Positions 2-14,701 of a stretch of 14,703 nt of DNA are shown here, piece after piece. Position numbers and translations under genes: made by a program. The stretch spans positions 1 to 14,703 of the forward strand of contig JBDRKI010000086.1 in the NCBI GenBank assembly GCA_043814095.1, read 5' to 3'. A model generated the notes under the pieces. It was not told the origin of the DNA. It made no database searches and was given only the letters and a program-made list of their open reading frames with translations. Each line of letters begins with the position of its first letter. The first letter of the stretch is position 1. Source of the DNA: Armatimonadota bacterium (GTDB lineage: Bacteria > Vulcanimicrobiota > JACPDS01 > JBDRKI01).

Positions 2-3000
2 AAGACGGGTAATGTAAGGTTGAATTCCCATAAGACAGAAGCAATATTCACAGAATTAGGCGAGCTGGGTATTGTACCTAAAGGAGGCAGTTTCGCTCTT
101 GAAGTAAGGGATACTAAAGAAGGGCTCAAATTCTACATTAACAATACCCCTCTTACCAGAGAACAGACCGATACTGTCTTAAAATTAATAACAATGCACG
201 GTTTAAAGCCTAAGAATATAGATATAGCCGTAAGAAGCGGATTAGCCCTTCTTACTTCAGACGGTAAAGTAGTAAAAGTAATGCACCTGAAAGCTCCTAC
301 AGATACCGCTATTCCGGAATCTGTAAGAACGCATACTAAAACCAAAGCAAAAGCAAACCCTGATAATGTTATTGACTTTAATAAATACAAAGAAGCAAAG
401 AAGAAGAAAACTGAGAAGAAAAAGAAAGATAAAAGCGGCAAGCCGCCTTCCGCACCTACTGCTACAGGCACTGATAAACCGGCTCCGCATAAAGTGCCTG
501 AAAGAAAAATGCCCGCTGCCGCTAAAGAAGCGCTTGCCGCGGCTAAGAAGTGCGCAAAATCTACTCTTGATACTTTTAAAAAAGGTTTGGGTAATATTAT
601 ACCTCAACCCCAAGCTGCGGCTGAAGGGCCGGCAGGTGTAAGCCCGCAGGGTATGAGAGTCCCTGTTGTTCCTCCTATTATGCAGAATAATGCAAGCCAC
701 CCGGGAGGCATAAACCCAAGGCATACACAGACTACAGGCTTGGGAGAAATTGATACTAAATATATGCCTTCATATATAGCAACCGAACCGGTAACAGCCA
801 AGAGTGTATTAAATAAAACACCTACTATCAATAATCTTAATGAGCTAAAAGCAGAAGTAGATAAAACTTACAGCAGATATAAACTTCTTGTAAGCCATGC
901 GGGTGAAGATTATTTCAATGTTGATTCTTTTAAAGGATATCTGCAGGGCTGTAACGCGCTTGATAGATTAATAACCGATATTCTATGGCAGGCAGAGAAA
1001 ATCCCGGGCAGTGAAAAACTTATAGACCGGCTTGTTACTATCAGAGCAAATATGATTATTCTCTGCTATACGCCCCTTTTAAGAAAAGCCGACAACTTAT
1101 CAATGTTAGACATGCTAGATTTTAAAAACGCCTTTAAAAGAAATACTGCCAGCACAACACAAGAAGAGGTATATCTGGCTCTGAATGATCCTGAAAAATT
1201 AGAGATAGATCTGTTTATGCCCAGGCTTGAAAGAGCTTCAAACCTTTTAGATCAATTTAAAAACTTAAACGATCTTAGTTTTGAAGAATTAAAAGAATAT
1301 ATTGAAGCGTGTGAAGTAGCCTGGAATACTGCCGACAAACTTCTTAATCTGAAGAATCTAAAGCCTGCGGATATAGAATTGCTTAAAGCAGAAGCCGATA
1401 AAGCCGTTGAAAATTATAAAGAAGCACTTAAGATAACACTTGAACATGACGGGTTAAACTTAGGCGAAAAATTCTTAATACTCGCCGAGTTTATAAAGAA
1501 TACGCATGAAGAAGTCTGGAACCTTAAAGAACTGCAAAATGCAGCCATTCAGATTCTTGATGCTCTAGTAAAGAAACGCCAAGATGAAAGTAGATCCATT
1601 GAATCTTATACCAGATTAAAGATAAGGGTTAAAGATATATTTAACTCCGACACAAATGAAGCGATATCAGTAGCAATTATAAATACGCTAAGAAATTATC
1701 TTACCAAAAAACTAACAGAGAAAAGTGATAGAAGAACTTACCTGCAAATAGGGCCCTTCTTACAAGAATTCTCTGAAACAGAAAAACGAGGAAACAATAT
1801 TCCAAAGTCTCCTTCTAAAGATAATATTCCAAAACCGCCCTCTGCGGGAAATGCTTCTAAAAATACAAATTTGTGGAAAGCAACAAACGAATTCGCTAAA
1901 AAGGTAGCAGACGGCTTAAAGAATCTGCTGGGAACAGAAGCTGTCACTCCCGAAGGCATAAAAATGCCTGCAGGTATACCTGAAAAACCCGTATCAATGC
2001 GGATGGACGGCAGAGCACTCGGGGCTAATCCTGTAGTAGCTGTATTCAGAAAAGACTTATTACATGTATATTCCTTAAGCTCCAGGGAAAACTTCGGATA
2101 TTCTGATGCATTAGAATACGTAACCGGCTGCAGCCGGATTTATAAAGAATTAAGTACGGCTATAGATAATGCGGGAACAGATACTTCTACAAGGTCAACC
2201 TTAGCAGACCTTAAAAAAGAACTGGTGAATACTATATATCCCGACCTTATAAACTGCTTTGAAAAATTACCTAACCACGACCAGTCCCCGTTCCTGCTTG
2301 AGATTATTAATAACTGCCCTGATGAAATATTTAAAAAACACCTGAATCTTTTAATAACAAAAACTTCTACGCTGGGTGCTGTAGAAAGAGAAAATTTTGA
2401 CATCAAAAACGCGATAAAATACCTCAGGGTATGCAATACCATATATAAGAAAGCTTCCGCTTTTATAGAAGCAGAACAGGATTCTCCCAGTAGAACAAGC
2501 TTAAAACTTGCCCTTGCAGATTTAGATAAAGTCTATACCGATGTTATAAACTGTATTGTAAAATTAGGTAAGAACCAGCAGGCTAGATTTTTATTAAAAT
2601 TTTTATCAGACTGCCCTGATGAAATTTTCAAAAAACAGTTAAACACCCTTACCTTCCTTGCAAGAATAACTATAACCGATAGAATAAGCTCTTTAAATTT
2701 TTATAAAGAAAAGACAGTTTTAAGCGAAGCAGACTTCCAGCTTTATCTTGAAGAATGCAACCGCAGATTTGATGAGCTTACACGCTTAATAGAAATATTT
2801 GAAGGAAAATCAGAAGACAAAAATTACTTACTTGATAGAATAAGATTAATCTATAATGCAATTGATGCCGAATTTGTATTAAAAAATGAACAGGAAAAAA
2901 TAGTTAAAGAATATTACACGGATTTACTGAAAAAGGCGGATGCACTTGCTGATTCACAACAAAAAACAAAACTTATTAATCTTATACATAATTCCCTGCC

Positions 3001-6000
3001 TTCTAATGTAAAAAAACACTATGAAATAACCACTCATATATCACTGACACGGACCGGGAGCTTAACACCAGAGCAGACAGATATACTGAATATAATAAGG
3101 CATGATATGAGATCTCCTTTAGCTTCTCTGGATGCAGCCCTGCATTTATTAATAAGCGGTTATCCTAAATATGAGTCTGTTTTAGGATACATCCGCAGTG
3201 AATTCGACAAAATCTCAGAAAATTTTGCTAATATTTTCAGCCCGTATAATCCCGAGTTTAAAGATTCTAATTTTGAAGAAGTTCTGGACAAGAAATTTGA
3301 AGAGCTTACAAAGCATGTAACTGCTTTAGAAAGCGTGGTTAATGCAATTAACTTCAGCCAGTGGGGCAAACTTTCAGAAAAGGAAATAGATCTTATAAAT
3401 ACTGTAAAAAGAACATTACAGGATACAAAAGATACTTTTGAAAAGAGAACAGACTATCTTAACTTAACTACCGAATACATTCAGTCAAATATAAGTAAGG
3501 TCAACCTCAAAAGCCTGGTAGAAAAAATCTGGGAAGAATTCTGCTGGGAAAAGCCGAACGGTAAACCCGTTAATTTAAAAACAAACATATATGAAACCCT
3601 TCAAATACCCGGAAACCAGCTCTCCTTCATAGTCGTATTAAGAAACATATTCCAGGATATCATGGATGAATTTAAACAGAATAAGTCCGGCTACTATGAA
3701 ATAATTGTCGGCGCTCATAAAGACGGCACTTCCGGCAAATTCATATTAACCGTAGAAGACAACGGACCCGGCATACCCGAAAACAGAAGAGAGAGTGTAT
3801 TTGAAGGCGACTCCAGTAAAGGTGAAGGAAGAGGGTTCGGTCTTAAGAGAGTAAAGCGGCTCGTACATGACAACGGCGGTCGCATCTGGGCGGCAGAAAG
3901 AACATCCGAAGACGGGGAATCGGTACCCGGCAACAAATTTATAATGGTATTTGATAAGGGTAAAGCTCCGGACAGAACTCCCGACCCCGGCAGAAGAAAC
4001 CTCAACGGTATAAACGGGCAGGATCCCGGAATAGTACGTGATCCCCTATTTGACGGCGCAAGAACCCCGGTGCCGGCAGACACCTTAAATGAAACTAAAG
4101 CGCCTGCCGCAATTGATAAAGAAGCAGGCACGGAAGCACTCCATTTTATAAGACATGACTTTAACTCTCCGATTAACTCAATACGCGCCTTCCTTGATAT
4201 GGCTCAACTCATAAATTCCGGACTGCGTGATAATCCTGATTTTAAAACTGCTCTGGAAAAAGTTGATTATTTGGAAAAAGAATTTGATAATTACTTCCCG
4301 CACCCCGGCAGTATTAACAATTTTTCATCCTTCTTAGACTCGCTGGAGGGAAAATTTAGAAAATTAAGCTCTTCCATTAATGAGATTGACAGACTGTTAA
4401 ATACATTTGAAATTTATAGATCTTTAACCCCTGAAAAAATCAAAATCCTGCTAAATGACTATTATCATCCGGAAAAGGGCAGAAAATTTACTCCGGAAGA
4501 AGAGTTAGAAGCCGCTTTCGCCGCGGTTAAAAGCAATATAAATAGCGCAAAAAGAAATTTTGAAGCGGAATTAACTGATATTATTGATTTAACGCCCGCA
4601 AACATAATGAAAAACTCCAAACAGTTCAACCTTACCGAACTTGTGCAAAACACAGTCAACCGCACAGGCGGCAGAAGGATAAAATTTGAGACCCAAAACA
4701 ACTATCCTGTTGTTGCGAACGAAGAAAAAATCGGTTTTGTTGTTGCGGAATTAATTAATAACGCTTTGAGGATTTTTAATCAGGAAGGAAAAGGAGACAG
4801 AGTAGAAATCCTCATAGAAACCGGAAAAGAAGCAAATACAATACAGATTTTTGTATCAGACAACGGCCCGGGCGTCCCTGATAATATGAAGCGGCGGATC
4901 TTCGATGAAGGAGAAACCACCACCCAAAAATCAGGCGGCACTGGCGGCGGTTTATATGTAGCAAATAAAATCATAGCGGCGCATAAAGGAACAATTGAAG
5001 CTACGGACACCCCCGGCGGAGGCACTACTTTTGTAATTGAGCTTCCTTGTGGAGGAGAAATACCTCAACCCGAGATGAGCCTGACGGAAAGCTGGATAGA
5101 TAAGGCAACCCGCTACTGCGAGAACGGTCATATAACAGAAGGCATTAAAGATGCTTTTGTTATGCTGTTACAGGAATACTACGGAAAACAGGACCTAAGC
5201 CATGCCCAGCTTAAAGCATACCTCCATTTCTGCGATATTATAAATGAAAACCTAAGCAAGCTGGATTCCATTACAAGAGCAGAGTTTAAAACATTCCTGT
5301 CCGGTGAAGAAACTGGACATATAAATCCTTACCTTGATATTATACATAATATTACCAACCCCAACCCCAGGTTTGAAGTGCGCCAGAGAGTGAATTTCCT
5401 TATTGAATTTATTGAAACCTGTCCTGAAGAAATATTTGAAGCGCATCATGCAAAGCTTGCATACCTTGTAAACAATCTGGTTACAAACGCAGTTAAAGGA
5501 GGTCTTGATTATTTCAAAGATAATACTTCAGACCTTCAGGGACTGCTTTATTATTTCTCGGAATGCCAGGAAAAATTCCATGAAGTATCAAGATTAATAA
5601 CTCTATCAGAAAAAAGACACCAGATTGATCCCGGGAACAGGCTTCCCGAGCTGCGTAAAGATCTAGTAGATATATATTATAAGGATACTCTTGATAAGGC
5701 TGAGAGTCTTCCCGAAAAAGACAGAAGAGAATTCCTTGAACAGGCCATGGGCAGACTGCCCGATATGGCAAAAGAAAATAAAGATATCGCTAAGCGCCTG
5801 ACAGGCCATAGAGATGTTATAACTGCCACAAGCCCTGAAGGAAGAATACTGGCAGAAATAAGGCATAATTACAGGGCTCCTCTTAATTCATTAAAAGGGC
5901 GCTTAAGACATATAATCGAGAGCACACAATCTGCAGATCTTCAGGAAAAACTTGAGCCCCTGCTTAATGCGGCAGACAATCTCTATAATGATTTTGACCA

Positions 6001-9000
6001 TACATTCAGAGCCGGCAACCCCTTATTCACAACTTCAGGATTTAAAGATACCCTTGACCGGCAGTGCGGGAGAATGCTGGGATTACTCAATACCATTGAA
6101 ATAGGATTAAAGGAAATAAATTTCTCGGTTATACCCGCAGAGAATAAAGATCTGCGCTCAAATGTAGATGAATTACTAAAGACCCCTGCTAGTATAAGAA
6201 GAGAGTTTGATAAAAGGAATAAACTGCTTGATCTAAACCCCGGTTTTGTAGAAAGAAACAGGGTTAAAGTAGGTCTTAGCACTATAGTTGAGAAAGCTGC
6301 AACTGACTTTACACATATATATATAAACAATAAACGGGTTAAATTAATCATAGACATACCCGAAGGCCTTAATGTTTATGCACATCCGTTCTCACTTGTA
6401 TCTGTATTCAGGAATCTTCTGGAAAACTCTAAAAATGCTCTTGAGACAGTTAAACAAGATGAGTATGTAATATCCATTAAAGCCCGGGAAGATGCAAATA
6501 CCGGCAATATTATGGTTTCTTCGTCCGATAACGGACCCGGCGTACACGCAAAAAGAAAAAAGGCAATATTCACGGGAGACAGCACAACAAAAGGCGGCAC
6601 CGGATTCGGGCTACCCAAAATAATGGAGCTTGTTACCGCAAACGGCGGTACAATCAAAGAAAACGGAAAGTTCGGGAAAGGCGCTGAATTTAATATTGAA
6701 CTGCTTTCCAAATCCCCTACAGAAGCTTTTGAATCTAAAAGAGTATCTGTAACCAAAGCCCTTAAAGAACTTGCTGTCATAACACATGATTATAAGCCGA
6801 GAGTTAATGCCCTGCTTATGGCAGTCCGTAACATTAATACTGATTATCCGGAACTCCTTGCCAAAAACCCTGAATTAAATAATATATTTACGGAACTTCT
6901 TGAAACAGCCGAAAAATTAAACCAGGCTGTAAACAGACTCCATGAAAAATACAGCAAGAAGTTTAAAGCTGCTTGTGATTATGATTCCAGAACAGTATCT
7001 CTTGCTGAATTAACTGCCTTTAAAACAGAACTGAATGCCTTTAAAAAAGACGCAAGAAAAATAAAAGAGCTTAATGCTGAATTTAACAGAGTTCTATCTT
7101 TTGAAATAATAGAGCAAGAGCCTACTGGCCGGCTGCAGACTGATCTTATTCTTATGCAGGAAGCCGTCAAAGAATTTACAGAGACAAATCTCTTTAACTT
7201 AACGCCTGAATATATAAGCTCAAATAAAACCAGGATTAACCTTCAGAAATTCTTTGAAGCATTAATGTTCAGAACAGCCAAAGGGCGGAAAATATCGCGC
7301 CAAACAAAAGACGGTATAATCACCCTGCAGGCAGAACTTGATCCCGTAAGAGGAAACAGGCCATCTACACTTACCGTAAGCCTGCCACAGAACTCCTTCT
7401 TATACGGTAATAACCACTCCTTATTAGTTATATTCGATAACCTTATAGCAAACTCTCAGAATATGATAAGTCTTGCAGACAGAGCCGCCTATAATATTAA
7501 TATAGCTATAACACCTGACCGCAAAACCAATAAAACCATATTTAACTACTCGGATAACGGATTAGGCATTGAAGCAGATAAAAAACAGAAGGTGTTTAAC
7601 GGATATAGCTCAAGAGAAGACGGCACGGGATCAGGCCTCCAGAAAGTAGCAGAACAGACAGAAGCACACGGCGGCAAGATATATGAAAACGGAGACTACG
7701 GCGAAGGTGCAAAATTTGTACTGACAATCCCGACAATGCCTCCTGAAGCATATCCTTTCGGCAAGGCTAAGGCTGAAAACACAAAGGCAAAGCCCGGAAG
7801 AGCTCCTTTTGAGAAAACAGAACTTCAGAAGGGTACTGTCGGTTCCGACCTGACACAGGCAAGAGCAAAAGCAAATAAACCCAGAGAATACAGATCCCAT
7901 ACCGGCATGCCTGTAAAAAGCGCAGACGGCACAATAACTACGCCTCATAGCAGTAAAAACATACACATATTAAGAAAACTTAAGGAAAAGGTAATATTAG
8001 CAATCCTTAATAAGAAATCAGCTGTTGAACAGACTCTTAAAGAACACAAAATAAAGGTAAAAGCAAATGAATTCTACGATGCAGAAACAAAAGAATACCG
8101 TTTATACCATTTGGTTGATCATATAATAAACAGCGGGTACAACGGGCCTGAGAATGCAATGCTATTCTGTGTTAAATTAATAGGGCTCTACAGGAAGAAA
8201 CAGGGTGAGCTTTTCACTAGATCAGAAATAGCCTTGCTGGAAGCAGGTGCTGTAAGGGCCGCGGTACACGATGTGCTCCAGGAAAAACAGCCTAACCTGC
8301 ATGATACTTATGGCAGTAATTCTATACTTGCCAAATACATTCTGGAATTAAAAGAAGATTTCCTTATGGATTTCTTCTGGAATAACCAAAAATTCGGAGT
8401 AAACAAAGATGAACTACTAGATGCAATATACTATAGATTACGCTGGTTTAGCCGCCAGACCGCTGAAGATTTCAAGCTGGCATTCGAAAATAAAAGACCT
8501 GAACTTACACTTGAACAGAAAAAAGCACAGCTTCTTGTATGTAACGGATTCTTTACAGAAGTTACAAAAGTAGGGAGTAATGCTACCGACGATCAAAAGC
8601 TTAAAGGGAACTTAAGATTCGTAAAAAGTACCTTGTTGCACAATTATTATGATTTTATCCTGCTTGATTTTGAAGGAATTCGAGATTCAGATAAAAGTAG
8701 AGCGCTTGTTGAATACTTCCATAATAATATACCTGCCGAAGTAAAAAGACACTACGAGATACAGACTGACCATCCGAATTATGAAAAGCTGCAGGAGATA
8801 AGGCATGGGCTTAGGAGTCATATTGCAAGTCTTAAAATGAACTTAACTTCTTTAGCAAGGCGCACAAAAGACAGTCCCGAAATTAAAGAAAAAGCACTCT
8901 CTATAGTTGATAAAGCCGACGCCTTAGAAGCATATGAAACCGGTTTCAGTGATGATAACTACACTGGAGAAAACTTAAATGAACCTCAATTCAGTAATTT

Positions 9001-12000
9001 AATAAAAGCTCAACTAAGATTACTGACTACGCATACTCTTGAAATAAATGCTTTAATGCTGGAGGCAATGCCTGAAAAAATATTTAATCTGCCTGCCCAA
9101 ATAATAGAAAAAATACTGGAATACGCAGACGAAAAAACTGCAGAGAGAATAAAAAGCAGACTGCCTGAGAATATTACTGAATACCTCAATACGGAAAAAG
9201 ATATGCCTTTCAAGGCCGTTAAATCTACTTTTATTTTATTTAAAGAAACCGTTCTTGATAATAACACCAATGTGGGATTCAGTATATTAGGAAACAAGGA
9301 CTGCAGAAAGGTATTATCTCCTCAAGACTTCTCCTTTATAATCGAAAACATTATCCAGAACTCCATAAGCGCGTTTAACAGGCAGATTGCAGAAGATCCT
9401 GAGAGATACAAAGATAAACAGTATGAAGTTACCGTACAGTTTGCAGGCGCAAAAGAAGGTGAAGATGGTCCTGTAAATATAACATTAAGCGATAACGGCC
9501 CCGGCATACCTCCTGCTCTGCCTTCTGCAGATGGCAATATACCGAAAGTTAATAAAGAAACCATCTGGTATGCAGGCGTAACAGAAGGCGGGAAAGGATA
9601 CGGCCTTAGCCTTGTAAAGGAAAAAGTGGAAAAAGCAGGCGGCAGAATCTATGAAAACGGCAAATACGGAGAAGGCGTGCAGTTCTGTATAGAACTCCCC
9701 GGCAAAGAATCTAAACCGGCTGAGGTTAAACCCGAAGTTAAAATAACAGAGAAAGCCCCCGGAGATGGATTAATAAAAGGAACCGAGATAAATCTACAGC
9801 AGAGCGGCAGAAGTAAGGTACCGGGCAGCCCTGCGGAAACAAAAATAGGGCTTACAGAGACGCCAATTTCCTCATCGGAATTCGGCGGCAAAGCACCCGG
9901 CGCGGCCGGTATGTCTACAAGAAAGCCCGGCATGCATAACGGGGTAAATATAGGGATACCCATTTCCAAGCTTAACGTATTTCACGGGATCTTAAGAAAA
10001 ATAACCAAAGGATTGGAAAAACCAACCGTCAGAGTAGATAATTTTGAAATATTTTTCTACACACTTGCTAAAGAGAATGCAGAAGTAGCGGTAGAGATCT
10101 TAGAAAGATTGCTGGAAATAAATAATGAACAGGGATGGAATTTAAATAACCTTATTGATATATATAACCAAATAGCGCGTCTTGCGTCCGTAAGATTCCC
10201 TGAAGGAAGAGAAGCGCTTAAATCCTTATTTAACTGCGGTAATATAGAAAGAATAAAAGAAAATATTGCTAAAGTTTCTAGAGAAGAAGAATATAACCCA
10301 ATACTTAAAAAAGATAAAATATTAACCGCTAAAAACGGTAGAACCCCGGATATGGAAGTTGAACAAAGCCCCTTTGTAAATTCCATACTTAGTTCGCCCA
10401 TTTTGAGCGGCTTAGACAAAGATACCATGGGGCAATTAGATGTCTTTGCCCGCAGGACATCGAATCTGGCAAAACATCTTGCGACAAAACACAACCACCC
10501 GGATCCTAAGCTCCTTACTTTCAATATAGAAAAAGGATTAAATATAAATAAAAAGTTTAAAAAAGTTTTAAATATTGAAGAATTAGATGCTCTGGAAAAG
10601 ACAGCCACGGTATTTAACAGAAAATTCTATAAAGCTAAAACAAGTATGATCTTAACTAAATTAGAGCTGGACAGCATGCCTGTAAAGGATGCGCATAATA
10701 TGATTGTGACCTTCCTTGTCGCGGCATTTAATTATACTTTTTCTTCCCATTACAAAGTGGAAAACTTCATTGCTGAACTGCGCGAGCTCCAGGAAATATA
10801 CTTAGAAAACACAAAACAGTTCCAGAAGACCCTTACCCCTGAAGAAAATAAGATAAACAGTATAATCCTGGGAGTTACCCGCCAAGACCAGCGCCTGGCA
10901 ATAATAAAAGAGATAAAAAAGCTTCCTTCTAAATTAATAAATGATCTTATTGATAATAACTGCATAATTGTATTTGCGGAAGATGACACACTCTCAGAAC
11001 CTGTTTTAAATATGTATCTGGACAGAGAATCCGGACATCCCGAAAGTAAAAAATTAGTAATACTGGGACGGGATTCCAGAATGGATCTTACCTCGGCAAT
11101 TTTCAGGGAAACATCCTACCGCATACTGCATTCAAAAGGATTAGGATTCTTAAAAGAAGAGATTGAAAATATACAGACTGTTGCGGAAAAAGAATTCGGC
11201 CTTAAAGGAGAAGATTTTGAAGAATTCTTTGCCTCATCTTTCGGAGCTTTTTTAACAAATACTTATAAGACATATTTTTATACGGAAGTACTGTTGAAGG
11301 ATCTGTTTAAATGTCCGCTTATTAAAGGCAGGGGTATTAAAAAAGACTCTGCCAATAAACCCCTTGAAGAAATAATCAGGCTCTTAACTGAAATATATGA
11401 AAAATCAGGCGGAAAAGACATACCTTACGGAGAACAGCTTAATATAAAAGAAGTTCACACGGTTAAGCAGGAGCCGGCAAAAGACCACGGTAAAAGATGG
11501 ATGGGCGGAAAACCGGATAAAGAAATAACCCCTAATCCGGAATTTGAACGCCCGGGCCTTATGCCGGAAACACCTCCGGATGCCGAAATAAGCGAATACA
11601 ACAAGAAGCTTCTGCTGGCTTTATGGGAAACGGAAGGTAATAGAGTAGAGGCGGCAAAAACTTTAAATGCAGCCCCAAAAACCATCGGAACGCATGCCAA
11701 TAATTTCATAGAAAGCGCAACGGCCAGACAGCTGGAAGCATGCGCGCTTCAATTAAGCAAAGAATCCGGAAAACATATTACGGCAACCCAGCTTCTTAAG
11801 TACTGCGGTTATCAAAAATTCAACCGCTTGCTAACAACGCTCGGAAAAAATCATGAATCAATTAATCCGGAGTTTATCCAGACCACTCTCGGAATTCAAG
11901 GATTAAGTCCGAGCAAATGCAGGCTTTACATATTAAAATTAAAAGACACAGGGGCTGACTTTGAGAAAGAATTCAATCTTTCAGAACAGCAGATTAACTC

Positions 12001-14701
12001 AATCCTTGTTATTTTATCTAAATGTACCAAAGTAGACAGGGGCACTTTTTATATTCCGAAAACAACAGAAATTGAAAACGAAGCAAAGACAGAAGGAACA
12101 TCCAAAGCAGAAACTGCAAAAAAAATTAAAGAAATAAAAGACACTGAATACCATAATACTCTGCAAGAGATAGGAAAAAATTACGAAAATTTATATGCGG
12201 CTTTAAGGTCAACTTTAAGTCAAAGACCGGAAACTATAATCGGACTTAGAAATTACATCCGAGAATTAAAACAAAAAGGCATTGATTTTAAAGCTCAATA
12301 CAATTTAACTGCCAAAGAGGTCGAAGCAATATTACTCATACTAAAAAGTGCCCATCTAAGCAAACTAAAAGCACAGTATATGGCCGGCAAACAAAAATTC
12401 GCACCGAATCAACCCGGACTTACTTTCCCGCAGGAAGCACTGCCGGCAGAGCGAGCTACCGGTCCCCTGGCAGAAAAAGTTCAAGAGCCTAAATTAGAGT
12501 CTGCTATTGATACGATAATTACTATGGCAAAACAGCCGCCGGCAGAAACAAAAACAGCAAAACCCTCAGGTGCAGCTGGTGGTGAAAAATACACCATAGA
12601 ACAAAAAGCAGCAGCAATGATACAGATACATAGACAAACCGGCAGATACAGTTCAACAGAAGCTGCAAAAATTTTGAAAAAAGAAAGCAAAGAAATAATA
12701 AATGAGAGCATTATCAGACAACCACTTAACAAATTTATAGAAGAAGCTTCTTTTGAAAAATTACAAGAATGTGCTATAAAAGTTTCTGAAATACTTGGAG
12801 AAACTGTAACGGACGGCGAACTTCTGCTTGCCTGTACCACTAAACATTTTAGAGCCGCATTAACTGACTTAGGAAACCATCTTGCTAAATTTGATAATAG
12901 AATAGAAGCATCGGACATACAAGACATCCTAAAAAAACACAACATCAGAGAAGAAGCTTTTAATGAGTATTTAATAAAATTAAGTAAAAGCAATGCAAAT
13001 CTATCAAAAACGCATAAACTATCCCATGAACAGATAGATAATTTGGCTAAATTACTGACCCCCGATACAGATACTGTGCTCAGACTTCTTATTGAAGATC
13101 CCTATAAATTACAGCCGGAGTTTACAGCAGTACTTAGAGGAGTCTGTGGAGACAGAGCTGTAACCGGAGCCATAATTAAGTTAAGAAACCTAATAAAAAC
13201 ACATAGAGAAGTAGTTGAAAAACTCCTTGCAGATCCACTGGGGGTTGATAAAACTCAAAAACTGCTAAATACACTTGATCCTAAACAAATAGGAATAACA
13301 AAAGCTCCTGCAGAAGCCTCGCCTGAGCAAGTAGTTACATCAACTGTATCTACGGGTGATATCATACACGATAATCTGTCTATAACCGAAAGAGATATAG
13401 AAACTTTATATCACCATTGGATGAACCCGCATATAACTCAGGTTCCAAATTTAACAAATGTAAAAAATCGTTGTAGTCAATTAGCCAAAAACAAGCAACG
13501 GGAACTAATATACAGATTAAACGCACTGGCTAAAAAACGCGGAAAAAACAAAAAGATTGATATGCCTGCTCTTACATGGCTTCTTAGTCTTAATCGAAAT
13601 ATAACCTTAAAAGAAAAAGCCCCTCCTATTGAAGGATCTACATGGAGAAGCTACCCCAAGTCCGCACAGCCGGCTTCTGTGCCTTCGCCAAAACCAGAAC
13701 CCGTATCTGCACCGGAGCAGATTGAAAAAGCGGCATCCGCAAAAGAAAGTATCATAGAAGAAAAATATACTATTGAACAAAAAATATCTGCTATGATTAA
13801 AGCACACAGGCAAACGAAAATTTACAGTCCCGTCAGGGCGGCTCAGATATTAGAAGAAGAACATGGAACTCAAATAAAATCAAATTCTGTCGGCCAGCAT
13901 CTTAACAAATTCATAGAAAAACCAACTACTACAATTGAAATTTTAAATGCTTTAGCAAAAAAACTCGGTGTAAAAACCGAAGAGGTAATACTTGCCTGCT
14001 GTAAACAGCAGTTTAGAGTTTCATTAATTGAATTAGGCAAAGAATTAGCGGATAAAAATATCGGCCTCCCGGAAATAAGGAGCATCTTAAATTCGCATTC
14101 TATTAGAAAACTCCCGGATGAAGTTTTCTATAGATATATCTCAAAACTAAGAGACTGCGAAGCAGATCTTTCAAAAGATTACAATCTCAACCGTGAACAG
14201 ATAACCTATTTAGCCGGTTTATTCGAAAAAGGTAATACCCCGGATAAACTTACAACTGGCGGGACAAGCGCACCCTTGCAGGCTTCCAAAGCAAAAGCCA
14301 ATAAGACAAGAAAAAGAGGGGTATTCCCTGAACCAACACGCCCTGAAAAATTGAGTCATGAAAAAGCGGAATTCAGCCAGTGGGATGACGGCCTTACCGC
14401 TAAAGAACATCTGGTAATATACCTTCTGGAAAACAATAAAAACACTTTTCTTAAAAACCCCAAAAAGTATGTCGCGGATCTTATACACACCTACTGCCAG
14501 AAAAAAATCAAAGCTATTGATAAACTCATACAGCTTATCAAGAATAAAGAGCTTGTTATTCAGGGATTCAAAACCAGAGACATTAATATATTATTAACCG
14601 CGCTGGGCCAAGTTAGAGATGATATATCTAAAAAATCAGGGACAGCGACAGTAAAACAAGACACAGAACCCCAAAAAATAACGGAACCAACGCAAGCAGT
14701 A
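2..14701 (+). CDS. Giant multidomain protein, partial at both ends (>=4900 aa): five histidine-kinase-like modules, helical repeats, degenerate zincin-like domain, HTH-containing repeats
   Basis: Manual translation of frame +2 runs from KTGNVRLNSHKTEAIF... to ...KITEPTQAV with no stop. All recognisable motifs (five DNGxG boxes, five H-boxes, HTH) lie in this one frame, and composition is Lys/Glu/Leu/Ile-rich as for a soluble protein. Start and stop codons lie outside the window. Confidence 0.96.
900..1565 (+). repeat. Helical protein repeat family A, copies 1-2 (divergent)
   Basis: YLQGC (938) ... CYTPLLRKADNL, and YIEAC (1298) ... FLILAEFIKNTHEEVW. Spacing is 120 aa, and motif order matches the clearer copies at 2080-3028. 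Boundaries approximate. Confidence 0.6.
1796..1843 (+). repeat. Short imperfect tandem duplication (27-nt period) in a linker
   Basis: aatattccaaagtctccttct (NIPKSPS) at 1796 and aatattccaaaaccgccctct (NIPKPPS) at 1823. Confidence 0.7.
2080..3028 (+). repeat. Helical protein repeat family A, copies 3-5
   Basis: RENF..YVTGC (2117)..IYPDLINCFEKL..FLLEIINNCPDEIFKKHLN; RENF..YLRVC (2420)..VYTDVINCIVKL..FLLKFLSDCPDEIFKKQLN; YLEEC (2744)..YYTDLLKKADAL. Periods are 101 and 108 aa. The DNA actgccctgatgaaat occurs identically at 2313 and 2610. Confidence 0.85.
3083..3952 (+). other. Histidine kinase module 1 (HisKA-like + HATPase_c) within the giant CDS
   Basis: H-box IIRHDMRSPLASL (His codon 3101); N-box VLRNIFQD (3644; second Asn replaced by Asp); G1 VEDNGPGIP (Asp 3758); F/G2 VFEGDSSKGEGRGFGL; then NGGRIW...GNKFIMVF. 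Confidence 0.9.
4136..5047 (+). other. Histidine kinase module 2 (HisKA-like + HATPase_c)
   Basis: H-box FIRHDFNSPINSI (His 4154); N-box VAELINNALR (Glu 4748); G1 VSDNGPGVP (Asp 4859); RIFDEGETTTQKSGGTGGGL; C-terminus AHKGTIEATDTPGGGTTFVIELP, the most canonical of the five. Confidence 0.93.
5170..5800 (+). repeat. Helical protein repeat family A, copies 6-7
   Basis: YLHFC (5219)..PYLDII..FLIEFIETCPEEIF (Cys 5420); YFSEC (5552)..YYKDTLDKAESL. Period 111 aa. Boundaries approximate. Confidence 0.75.
5846..6706 (+). other. Histidine kinase module 3 (HisKA-like + HATPase_c)
   Basis: H-box EIRHNYRAPLNSL (His 5864); N-box VFRNLLENSKNA (6413); G1 SDNGPGV (Asp 6527); IFTGDSTTKGGTGFGL; NGGTIKENGKFGKGAEFNIEL. 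Confidence 0.9.
6767..7732 (+). other. Histidine kinase module 4 (HisKA-like + HATPase_c)
   Basis: H-box VITHDYKPRVNAL (His 6785); N-box VIFDNLIANSQN (7439); G1 SDNGLGIE (Asp 7553); VFNGYSSREDGTGSGL; AHGGKIYENGDYGEGAKFVLTIP. Confidence 0.88.
8480..8761 (+). repeat. Helical protein repeat family A, copy 8 (divergent)
   Basis: QLLVC (Cys 8540)..YYDFILL..HNNIPAEVKRHYEI (8720-8761), matching HNSLPSNVKKHYEI (2987-3028) at the end of copy 5. Confidence 0.65.
8786..9700 (+). other. Histidine kinase module 5 (divergent H-box + HATPase_c)
   Basis: H-box EIRHGLRSHIASL (His 8804); N-box IIENIIQNSISA (9347); G1 LSDNGPGIP (Asp 9491); IWYAGVTEGGKGYGL; AGGRIYENGKYGEGVQFCIELP. Confidence 0.87.
10880..11260 (+). 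other. Degenerate zincin (ATLF / Pro-Pro endopeptidase-like) metallopeptidase-fold domain, probably inactive
   Basis: Ordered motifs IKKLPSKLINDLIDNNCIIVF ... KKLVIL ... AIFRETSYRI (11105-11119, at the expected HExxH position) ... EEFFASSFGAFL (11219-11254, resembling the EFFAESF helix). Pattern match by eye only. Confidence 0.5.
11594..14224 (+). repeat. Protein repeat family B (~140-160 aa): three full copies (11594-12016, 12584-13057, 13760-14224) plus a C-terminal half copy (12146-12343)
   Basis: EKYTIEQKAAAMIQIHRQT..EAAKIL..LNKFIE..LLLAC vs EKYTIEQKISAMIKAHRQT..RAAQIL..LNKFIE..VILAC vs EAAKTL..ANNFIE..LLKYC. Shared tails: YILKLKDTGADFEKEFNLSEQQI / YIRELKQKGIDFKAQYNLTAKEV / YLIKLSKSNANLSKTHKLSHEQI / YISKLRDCEADLSKDYNLNREQI. 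Confidence 0.85.
11609..11686 (+). other. Fis-type (HTH_8-like) helix-turn-helix
   Basis: LLLALWETEGNRVEAAKTLNAAPKTI fits the Fis/NtrC C-terminal pattern ALxxxxGNxxxAAxxLGxxxxTL, with the turn Gly replaced by Asn. Confidence 0.7.

Follow-up and report, generated by a model that had tools for sequence, protein, structure and literature searches.

Dimerisation through the DHp domain is held to be near-universal among sensor histidine kinases, and it is the base on which models of signal transmission and of cis or trans autophosphorylation are built. In HK853 of Thermotoga maritima (PDB 2c2a/3dge), helix 1 with the H-box, a loop and helix 2 lead straight into the catalytic (CA) domain, and a second subunit is needed to complete the four-helix bundle. 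Here we describe five kinase modules encoded by a 14,703-base stretch of DNA (the window), which is the entire contig JBDRKI010000086.1 (C86) of the 2.5 Mb draft genome of an Armatimonadota bacterium (GCA_043814095.1; 129 contigs, 99% complete). Over the helical hairpin, H-box included, and over the whole catalytic domain, the modules align with HK853 both in sequence and in fold (Z about 18). Between hairpin and catalytic domain, however, they carry 72–95 additional amino acids (aa), predicted to form two further helices, which may allow one chain to build a complete four-helix bundle.

Among the kinases named in the literature consulted here, EL346, a LOV-HWE/HisKA2 kinase of Erythrobacter litoralis, is the only exclusive monomer that is well characterised, and it reached that state by a different route. 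Its LOV domain lies over the face with which its two-helix DHp-like domain would otherwise dimerise (PMC10359499, PMC13690264), so the original prediction for the window, which had credited EL346 with an intramolecular four-helix bundle, was wrong on this point. EL346 and the modules are alike in that a single-chain kinase is shown for the one and proposed for the others, with the dimerisation face of the His-bearing helices occupied in cis. They would differ in the cover, which is a LOV beta sheet in EL346 (PMC10359499, PMC13690264) and an inserted helical hairpin in our proposal. Neither the HisKA_2 nor the HWE family is listed for the window protein (Pfam, E <= 1) and its H-box is of the HisKA type. 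Nor was an EL346-like docked sensor found, as no PAS or LOV family is listed at the same threshold and modules 2 and 4 follow directly after a catalytic domain.

The nearest architectural parallel is provided by the mitochondrial protein kinases BCKDK and PDK, in which an N-domain forming a one-chain four-helix bundle is combined with a GHKL catalytic domain. These enzymes phosphorylate serines of other proteins and dimerise via their catalytic domains. The modules differ from them in keeping the invariant H-box His; there is no sequence-family match, since the Pfam family of the BCKDK/PDK N-domain, which we take to be BCDHK_Adom3, is unlisted at E <= 1, and the two domains are placed differently relative to each other, as only the catalytic domain superposes rigidly with the model of module 1. 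Hpt domains carry their histidine on the second helix of the bundle, whereas that of the modules lies on the first, within a HisKA-type H-box, and no Hpt family is listed by Pfam. A two-hairpin bundle made by one chain is seen in single-chain ROP (1yo7), where the hairpin of homodimeric ROP was re-engineered; this protein is man-made and unrelated, and in the modules no sequence similarity between the two hairpins could be detected. The literature searched, a coverage that leaves out most subscription journals, did not yield any HisKA kinase described as having an intramolecular four-helix DHp.

The window encodes one protein of 4900 aa, in which Pfam recognises five HATPase_c stretches (E 6e-70). 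Many NCBIfam sensor-kinase models also match it five times, via the catalytic parts. The match to HisKA (PF00512) is weak, 30.8 bits against a cut-off of 26.9, and comprises two stretches, the better of which places aa 1025–1072 on positions 2–51 of the 66 in the model. PAS, LOV, HAMP, receiver and Hpt domains are all absent from the families listed (Pfam, E <= 1). Module limits were set with a profile made from the five modules themselves. The reading frame and its modules are as follows, with the phospho-acceptor His, the first N-box residue and the distance between them.

2..14701, plus strand: single open reading frame without a stop, open at both contig ends, 4900 aa.
3029..3994, plus strand: kinase module 1, aa 1010–1331; His1034 at codon 3101–3103, N-box from aa 1215, distance 181 aa.
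4115..5098, plus strand: kinase module 2, aa 1372–1699; His1385 at codon 4154–4156, N-box from aa 1583, distance 198 aa.
5792..6751, plus strand: kinase module 3, aa 1931–2250; His1955 at codon 5864–5866, N-box from aa 2138, distance 183 aa.
6737..7771, plus strand: kinase module 4, aa 2246–2590, abutting module 3; His2262 at codon 6785–6787, N-box from aa 2480, distance 218 aa.
8732..9721, plus strand: kinase module 5, aa 2911–3240; His2935 at codon 8804–8806, N-box from aa 3116, distance 181 aa.
39838–56437 of contig C32, minus strand: paralogous giant frame, 5533 aa, with kinase modules at aa 2600–2938, 2941–3265 and 3453–3998.

The five distances reproduce exactly those on which the original prediction was based, and nt 9349, where the feature it had marked stops, completes the N3116 codon. 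The prediction had set them against a canonical distance of roughly 110 aa, and this figure also holds within the same genome. Outside the giant frames there are 21 catalytic-domain matches, 14 of which have an H-box recognised by pattern and could be measured (the other 7 were not measurable), and in 14/14 the distance is 110–117 aa, compared to 181–218 aa in the window. A second control was drawn from databases, where all 43 kinase cores of 40 measurable proteins (among 55 weak matches) gave 105–117 aa. The two tandem modules of the C32 protein (C32a and C32b) carry the same insert, with distances of 204 and 202 aa, so that the long spacing is found in 7/7 His-bearing modules of two giant frames. 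Given both controls, the excess of 64–108 aa is real and sharply apart from the norm. The third C32 module is degenerate; it lacks the His, and its DHp-like part is separated from the catalytic domain by about 280 aa.

To place the extra residues, the profile of the seven modules was aligned with HK853, and the alignment falls into two pieces. Profile positions 6–71 correspond to HK853 residues 12–79, which span the His-bearing helix 1, helix 2 and the loop that connects them, and positions 163–324 to residues 82–247, which take in the last part of helix 2 together with the catalytic domain. HK853 runs on without a gap at the break, whereas in the profile about 90 positions are passed over at a single point, so the canonical hairpin has stayed whole and a single block has been inserted just before the catalytic domain. 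By HisKA standards, the modules thus have a GHKL catalytic domain and an H-box His on a HisKA-like helix 1, but helix 2 does not run directly into the catalytic domain, the junction being occupied by the insert. Its extent in each module was determined from the alignment with HK853.

3239..3457, plus strand: module 1 insert, aa 1080–1152, 73 aa, comprising a loop, helix a3, a second loop and most of helix a4.
4298–4582, plus strand: module 2 insert, aa 1433–1527, 95 aa.
6008–6226, plus strand: module 3 insert, aa 2003–2075, 73 aa.
6944–7192, plus strand: module 4 insert, aa 2315–2397, 83 aa, with a further 20 aa or so before the N-box.
8948–9163, plus strand: module 5 insert, aa 2983–3054, 72 aa, with a proline-broken fourth segment.

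In module 4, a longer loop between helices 1 and 2 accounts for the remaining excess along with these approximately 20 aa, which belong to the N-terminal portion of the catalytic domain. Pairwise identity among the seven modules is only 12–28%, yet all have kept the insert, which is therefore old in this lineage and has been maintained. Internal duplication was considered as the origin of the second hairpin and is not supported, as hhalign of hairpin 1 against hairpin 2 gave a probability of 0.5% and one aligned column.

The original prediction had described the spacer as filled with amphipathic-helix-like sequence, and both the structural models and the alignment bear this out. Single chains were modelled with AlphaFold2 (AF2), using the full module 1 with an alignment of the seven paralogous modules, and the helical part of module 3 alone. 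The full module 1 was modelled with a mean pLDDT of 79.7 and a pTM of 0.70, and DSSP assigned helices at module residues 12–42 (His at 23), 44–67, 77–104 and 115–136, followed by a normal catalytic domain. For the helical part of module 3 (pLDDT 87.9, pTM 0.79) the helices are at residues 5–34, 38–61, 71–98 and 109–130. In both models, the insert supplies the third and fourth helices.

3068–3160, 3164–3235, 3263–3346 and 3377–3442, plus strand: helices a1, a2, a3 and a4 of module 1 in the AF2 model.
3488–3967, plus strand: module 1 catalytic domain.
5834–5923, 5933–6004, 6032–6115 and 6146–6211, plus strand: helices a1, a2, a3 and a4 of module 3 in the AF2 model.

Independently of AF2, the conserved hydrophobic columns of the seven modules show their strongest periodicity at 100 degrees in each of the four helices, and the hydrophobic moment of each module 1 helix is above that of shuffled sequences (z 1.8–2.9). 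Modules 1 and 3 are predicted by AF2 to fold as four-helix bundles, and from the alignment modules 2, 4 and 5 would be expected to do the same.

Compared to solved kinases, the catalytic domain of the module 1 model gave Z values of about 18–19, and some of the matches take in helices as well. Chain 4kp4_A, for example, aligns over 211 residues (rmsd 2.9 Å, model range 11–311), and residues 254–480 of HK853 (2c2a) align with model residues 84–310 (rmsd 7.2 Å). BCKDK chains were among the Foldseek matches of module 1, with alignments of 316–319 columns. The helical model of module 3 was compared to 48,161 representative chains with VIA-align, and the best match was single-chain ROP (1yo7_B; Z 12.2, rmsd 2.5 Å, 112/120 residues), followed among others by the designed four-helix bundles 7m5t (Z 11.7, rmsd 2.1 Å, 96/100) and 9u78_B (Z 11.3, 118/118) and by the N-terminal bundles of the kinases BCKDK (3tz0_A, Z 11.0, 135 residues) and PDK2 (6lil_A, Z 9.9). 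Hpt domains, CheA P1 and Spo0B were not among the best 50 VIA-align matches listed, and could be present further down. The top Foldseek matches of this model are likewise mostly one-chain helical bundles, namely Dps/ferritin-like proteins, PilJ, single-chain ROP, pectin methylesterase inhibitor and designed maquettes. The ESM Atlas returned only short unnamed clusters for the same part (0.91–0.92, a recognition below the usual mark), which is uninformative. AlphaFold modelling of the monomer, a check proposed along with the original prediction, has the extra residues packed into one bundle, with single-chain ROP as the best VIA-align match. Of the self-contained four-helix DHp that had been predicted, a second hairpin packed with the canonical one is what the single-chain models reproduce, which supports that prediction in part, with operation as monomers still a proposal.

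From these results a mechanism can be proposed. The helical hairpin a3-a4, which separates the C-terminal end of DHp helix a2 from the CA domain, would pack on the face of a1-a2 that normally receives the partner subunit, giving a complete up-and-down four-helix bundle from one chain. The CA domain would hang from a4, which probably adjoins the His-bearing a1, and this arrangement would make ATP-dependent phosphorylation of the His possible within one chain, in a geometry resembling trans-phosphorylation in a normal dimer. In the AF2 models of modules 1 and 3, a1 begins about 10 residues before the His; this short lead, together with the position of modules 2 and 4 right after a catalytic domain, argues against the usual coiled-coil input, and the kinase cores would be self-sufficient beads in a giant chain that do without it. 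We give an even chance to the reading as a whole, namely that these are HisKA-type kinases in which the inserted hairpin completes a single-chain bundle, with phosphorylation in-chain and each module functioning by itself as a monomer.

The H-box His is invariant in 7/7 modules, on helix 1 of the HisKA-like hairpin, and the G1 and G2 boxes are each intact in 5/5 modules of the window. Module 2 has a Glu at the first Asn of the N-box, and in module 4 the residue before the His is Thr instead of Arg or Ser, but these two modules come closest to the canonical set of catalytic residues. Between the G1 and G2 boxes, module 5 (window approximately 9509–9550, aa 3170–3183) and both C32 modules have about 11 aa more, an extra loop that is absent from modules 1–4.

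Several observations weigh against a self-sufficient, single-chain kinase. Module 1 has Asp1219 at the second Asn of the N-box, the Mg-binding one in HK853 (window 3653–3658, aa 1218–1219), and the residue after the His is Asn in module 3 (5867–5869) and Gly in module 5 (8807–8809) instead of being acidic. In EnvZ, an Asn-to-Asp change at the same N-box position abolishes kinase activity. Judging by these residues, some modules may be inactive as kinases or biased towards phosphatase activity. The structural evidence consists entirely of predictions based on just seven aligned paralogous sequences, and AF2, when given a single chain, tends to pack hydrophobic helices into a bundle regardless of the real oligomeric state. 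The models cover modules 1 and 3, and the fourth helical segment is broken by proline in module 5 as well as in both C32 modules. The helical model of module 3 has no PDB match at E <= 0.001 (Foldseek), and by the caution of VIA-align itself, Z values below about 13 are common among helical bundles, so that the matches give the kind of fold of the model and not its kinship; this applies equally to the likeness to the N-domains of BCKDK and PDK2.

The alternative that survives best is that the modules still dimerise, the hairpin decorating or extending a canonical dimeric DHp (as a six- or eight-helix or a domain-swapped arrangement) and two giant chains running parallel. Dimerisation is the rule for HisKA kinases (PMC10359499), helices a1-a2 still match both HisKA and HK853, and AF2 was given single chains only. 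A homodimer prediction for the helical domain of module 1 (two copies, residues 9–152) scored 0.00 and 0.03 where the mark is 0.42, which provides no answer either way. Against a dimer, the four helices of module 3 are modelled as one compact unit (pTM 0.79), a1 has only some 10 helical residues ahead of the His, and modules 2 and 4 are without an upstream coiled coil. We consider this alternative unlikely, though the most serious of those weighed.

A second possibility is suggested by the layout of the two proteins. Modules 1 and 2, modules 3 and 4, and C32a and C32b are each arranged in tandem, the linker between partners measuring 0–40 aa, and only module 5 stands alone. With tandem pairs in three units out of four, a pairing of neighbours within the chain is a live rival to the single-module bundle. 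The helical domains of each pair would then pack together as an intramolecular pseudo-dimer with the insert as its interface, and it fits this picture that the deviant catalytic residues are unevenly split between pair partners. Module 5, however, carries the same insert without a neighbour, and the single-module models are already compact, which makes pairing distinctly improbable.

Least probable, by a small step, is that the modules do not autophosphorylate at all, being pseudokinases, scaffolds or PDK/BCKDK-like kinases of other substrates: the structural matches to the BCKDK and PDK2 N-domains, the BCKDK alignment over 319 columns of module 1, the catalytic deviations in modules 1, 3 and 5 and the absence of receiver and Hpt domains from the window protein (Pfam) would all suit this, but the His is invariant within a recognisable H-box, the G1 and G2 boxes are intact, the BCKDK/PDK N-domain family finds no match (Pfam, E <= 1), and PDK3 and BCKDK match the catalytic domain alone in rigid-body alignment.

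Within the searches made, no long DHp turned up outside this genome, where it occurs in the seven modules of the two giant frames. A profile of the seven DHp regions was run against 1.84 billion representative proteins and returned 40 matches at E <= 1e-3; the two at E <= 1e-10 are the window's own protein and its paralogue on contig C32. A word-indexed search gave 17 weak matches among proteins near the module length and, among proteins of 2695–8575 aa, nothing beyond the window protein itself and that of C32. Forty related genomes, one of the same order and the others of the same phylum (the source genome is alone in its family), yielded three weak matches (E 2e-7 to 2e-6) and no strong ones. 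A pattern scan of species genomes retrieved one locus, with a match to the catalytic domain only, and the same scan of metagenomes retrieved none.

The giant frames have a number of other features. Besides that of the window, frames of 5533, 3893, 3711, 2075 and 1804 aa are open at or near the ends of contigs C32, C90, C106, C78 and C63, respectively, and it may be that a small number of giant genes were broken by assembly into the frames on these six contigs. The C90 frame specifies two pairs of M16 peptidase domains, low-molecular-weight phosphotyrosine phosphatase domains occur in three stretches of the C106 frame and two of the C63 frame (Pfam), and HEAT-type repeats are present in the C32 protein (precomputed Pfam listing). 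In the window protein, helical regions lacking a Pfam match lie upstream of modules 1, 3 and 5 (window approximately 2084–3028, 5219–5790 and 8438–8730; aa 695–1010, 1740–1930 and 2813–2910). They are akin to one another, as self-BLAST pairs aa 883–1119 with 1819–2042 and with 2813–3002, and the recurrence of a related region before these three modules indicates a repeating unit consisting of a helical region and a kinase, in some cases followed by a second kinase. A lysine-rich low-complexity stretch is found near the N-terminal end of the frame (window approximately 360–520, aa 120–175), and similar linkers rich in Pro, Lys and Ala occur between the larger units, for example at aa 2595–2660 and 3240–3330. 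The C-terminal third contains a repeat of about 120 aa in three copies (31–57% identity, self-BLAST), and upstream of these, around aa 3790–3830, is a sequence that we presume to resemble a Fis-type helix-turn-helix, a family that Pfam did not list there.

11648–12001 (approximate), plus strand: first copy of the repeat, aa 3883–4000.
12659–13042 (approximate), plus strand: second copy, aa 4220–4347.
13886–14203 (approximate), plus strand: third copy, aa 4629–4734.

The case is drawn from one genome and from predicted structures, and its reach is limited accordingly. If the modules do complete their own bundles, a HisKA core that does so would represent a second, independent solution to the monomeric kinase. 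The geometry of phosphorylation would then be fixed by covalent topology, and for protein engineering the module would offer a compact kinase cassette free of the dimer. A broader interpretation, to which we assign slightly less than an even chance, is that these are natural single-chain DHp kinases which escaped the need for a dimer by way of a second hairpin, and that in a deep-branching, poorly sampled lineage the resulting portable, autonomous cassette was copied along giant multi-enzyme proteins, seven times or more. In that case the reaction would be confined strictly to one chain, and the coiled-coil piston or scissor regulation of ordinary sensor kinases would be excluded. A core that completes its own bundle would also help to explain how a protein of several thousand residues can carry a whole series of enzymatic signalling modules.

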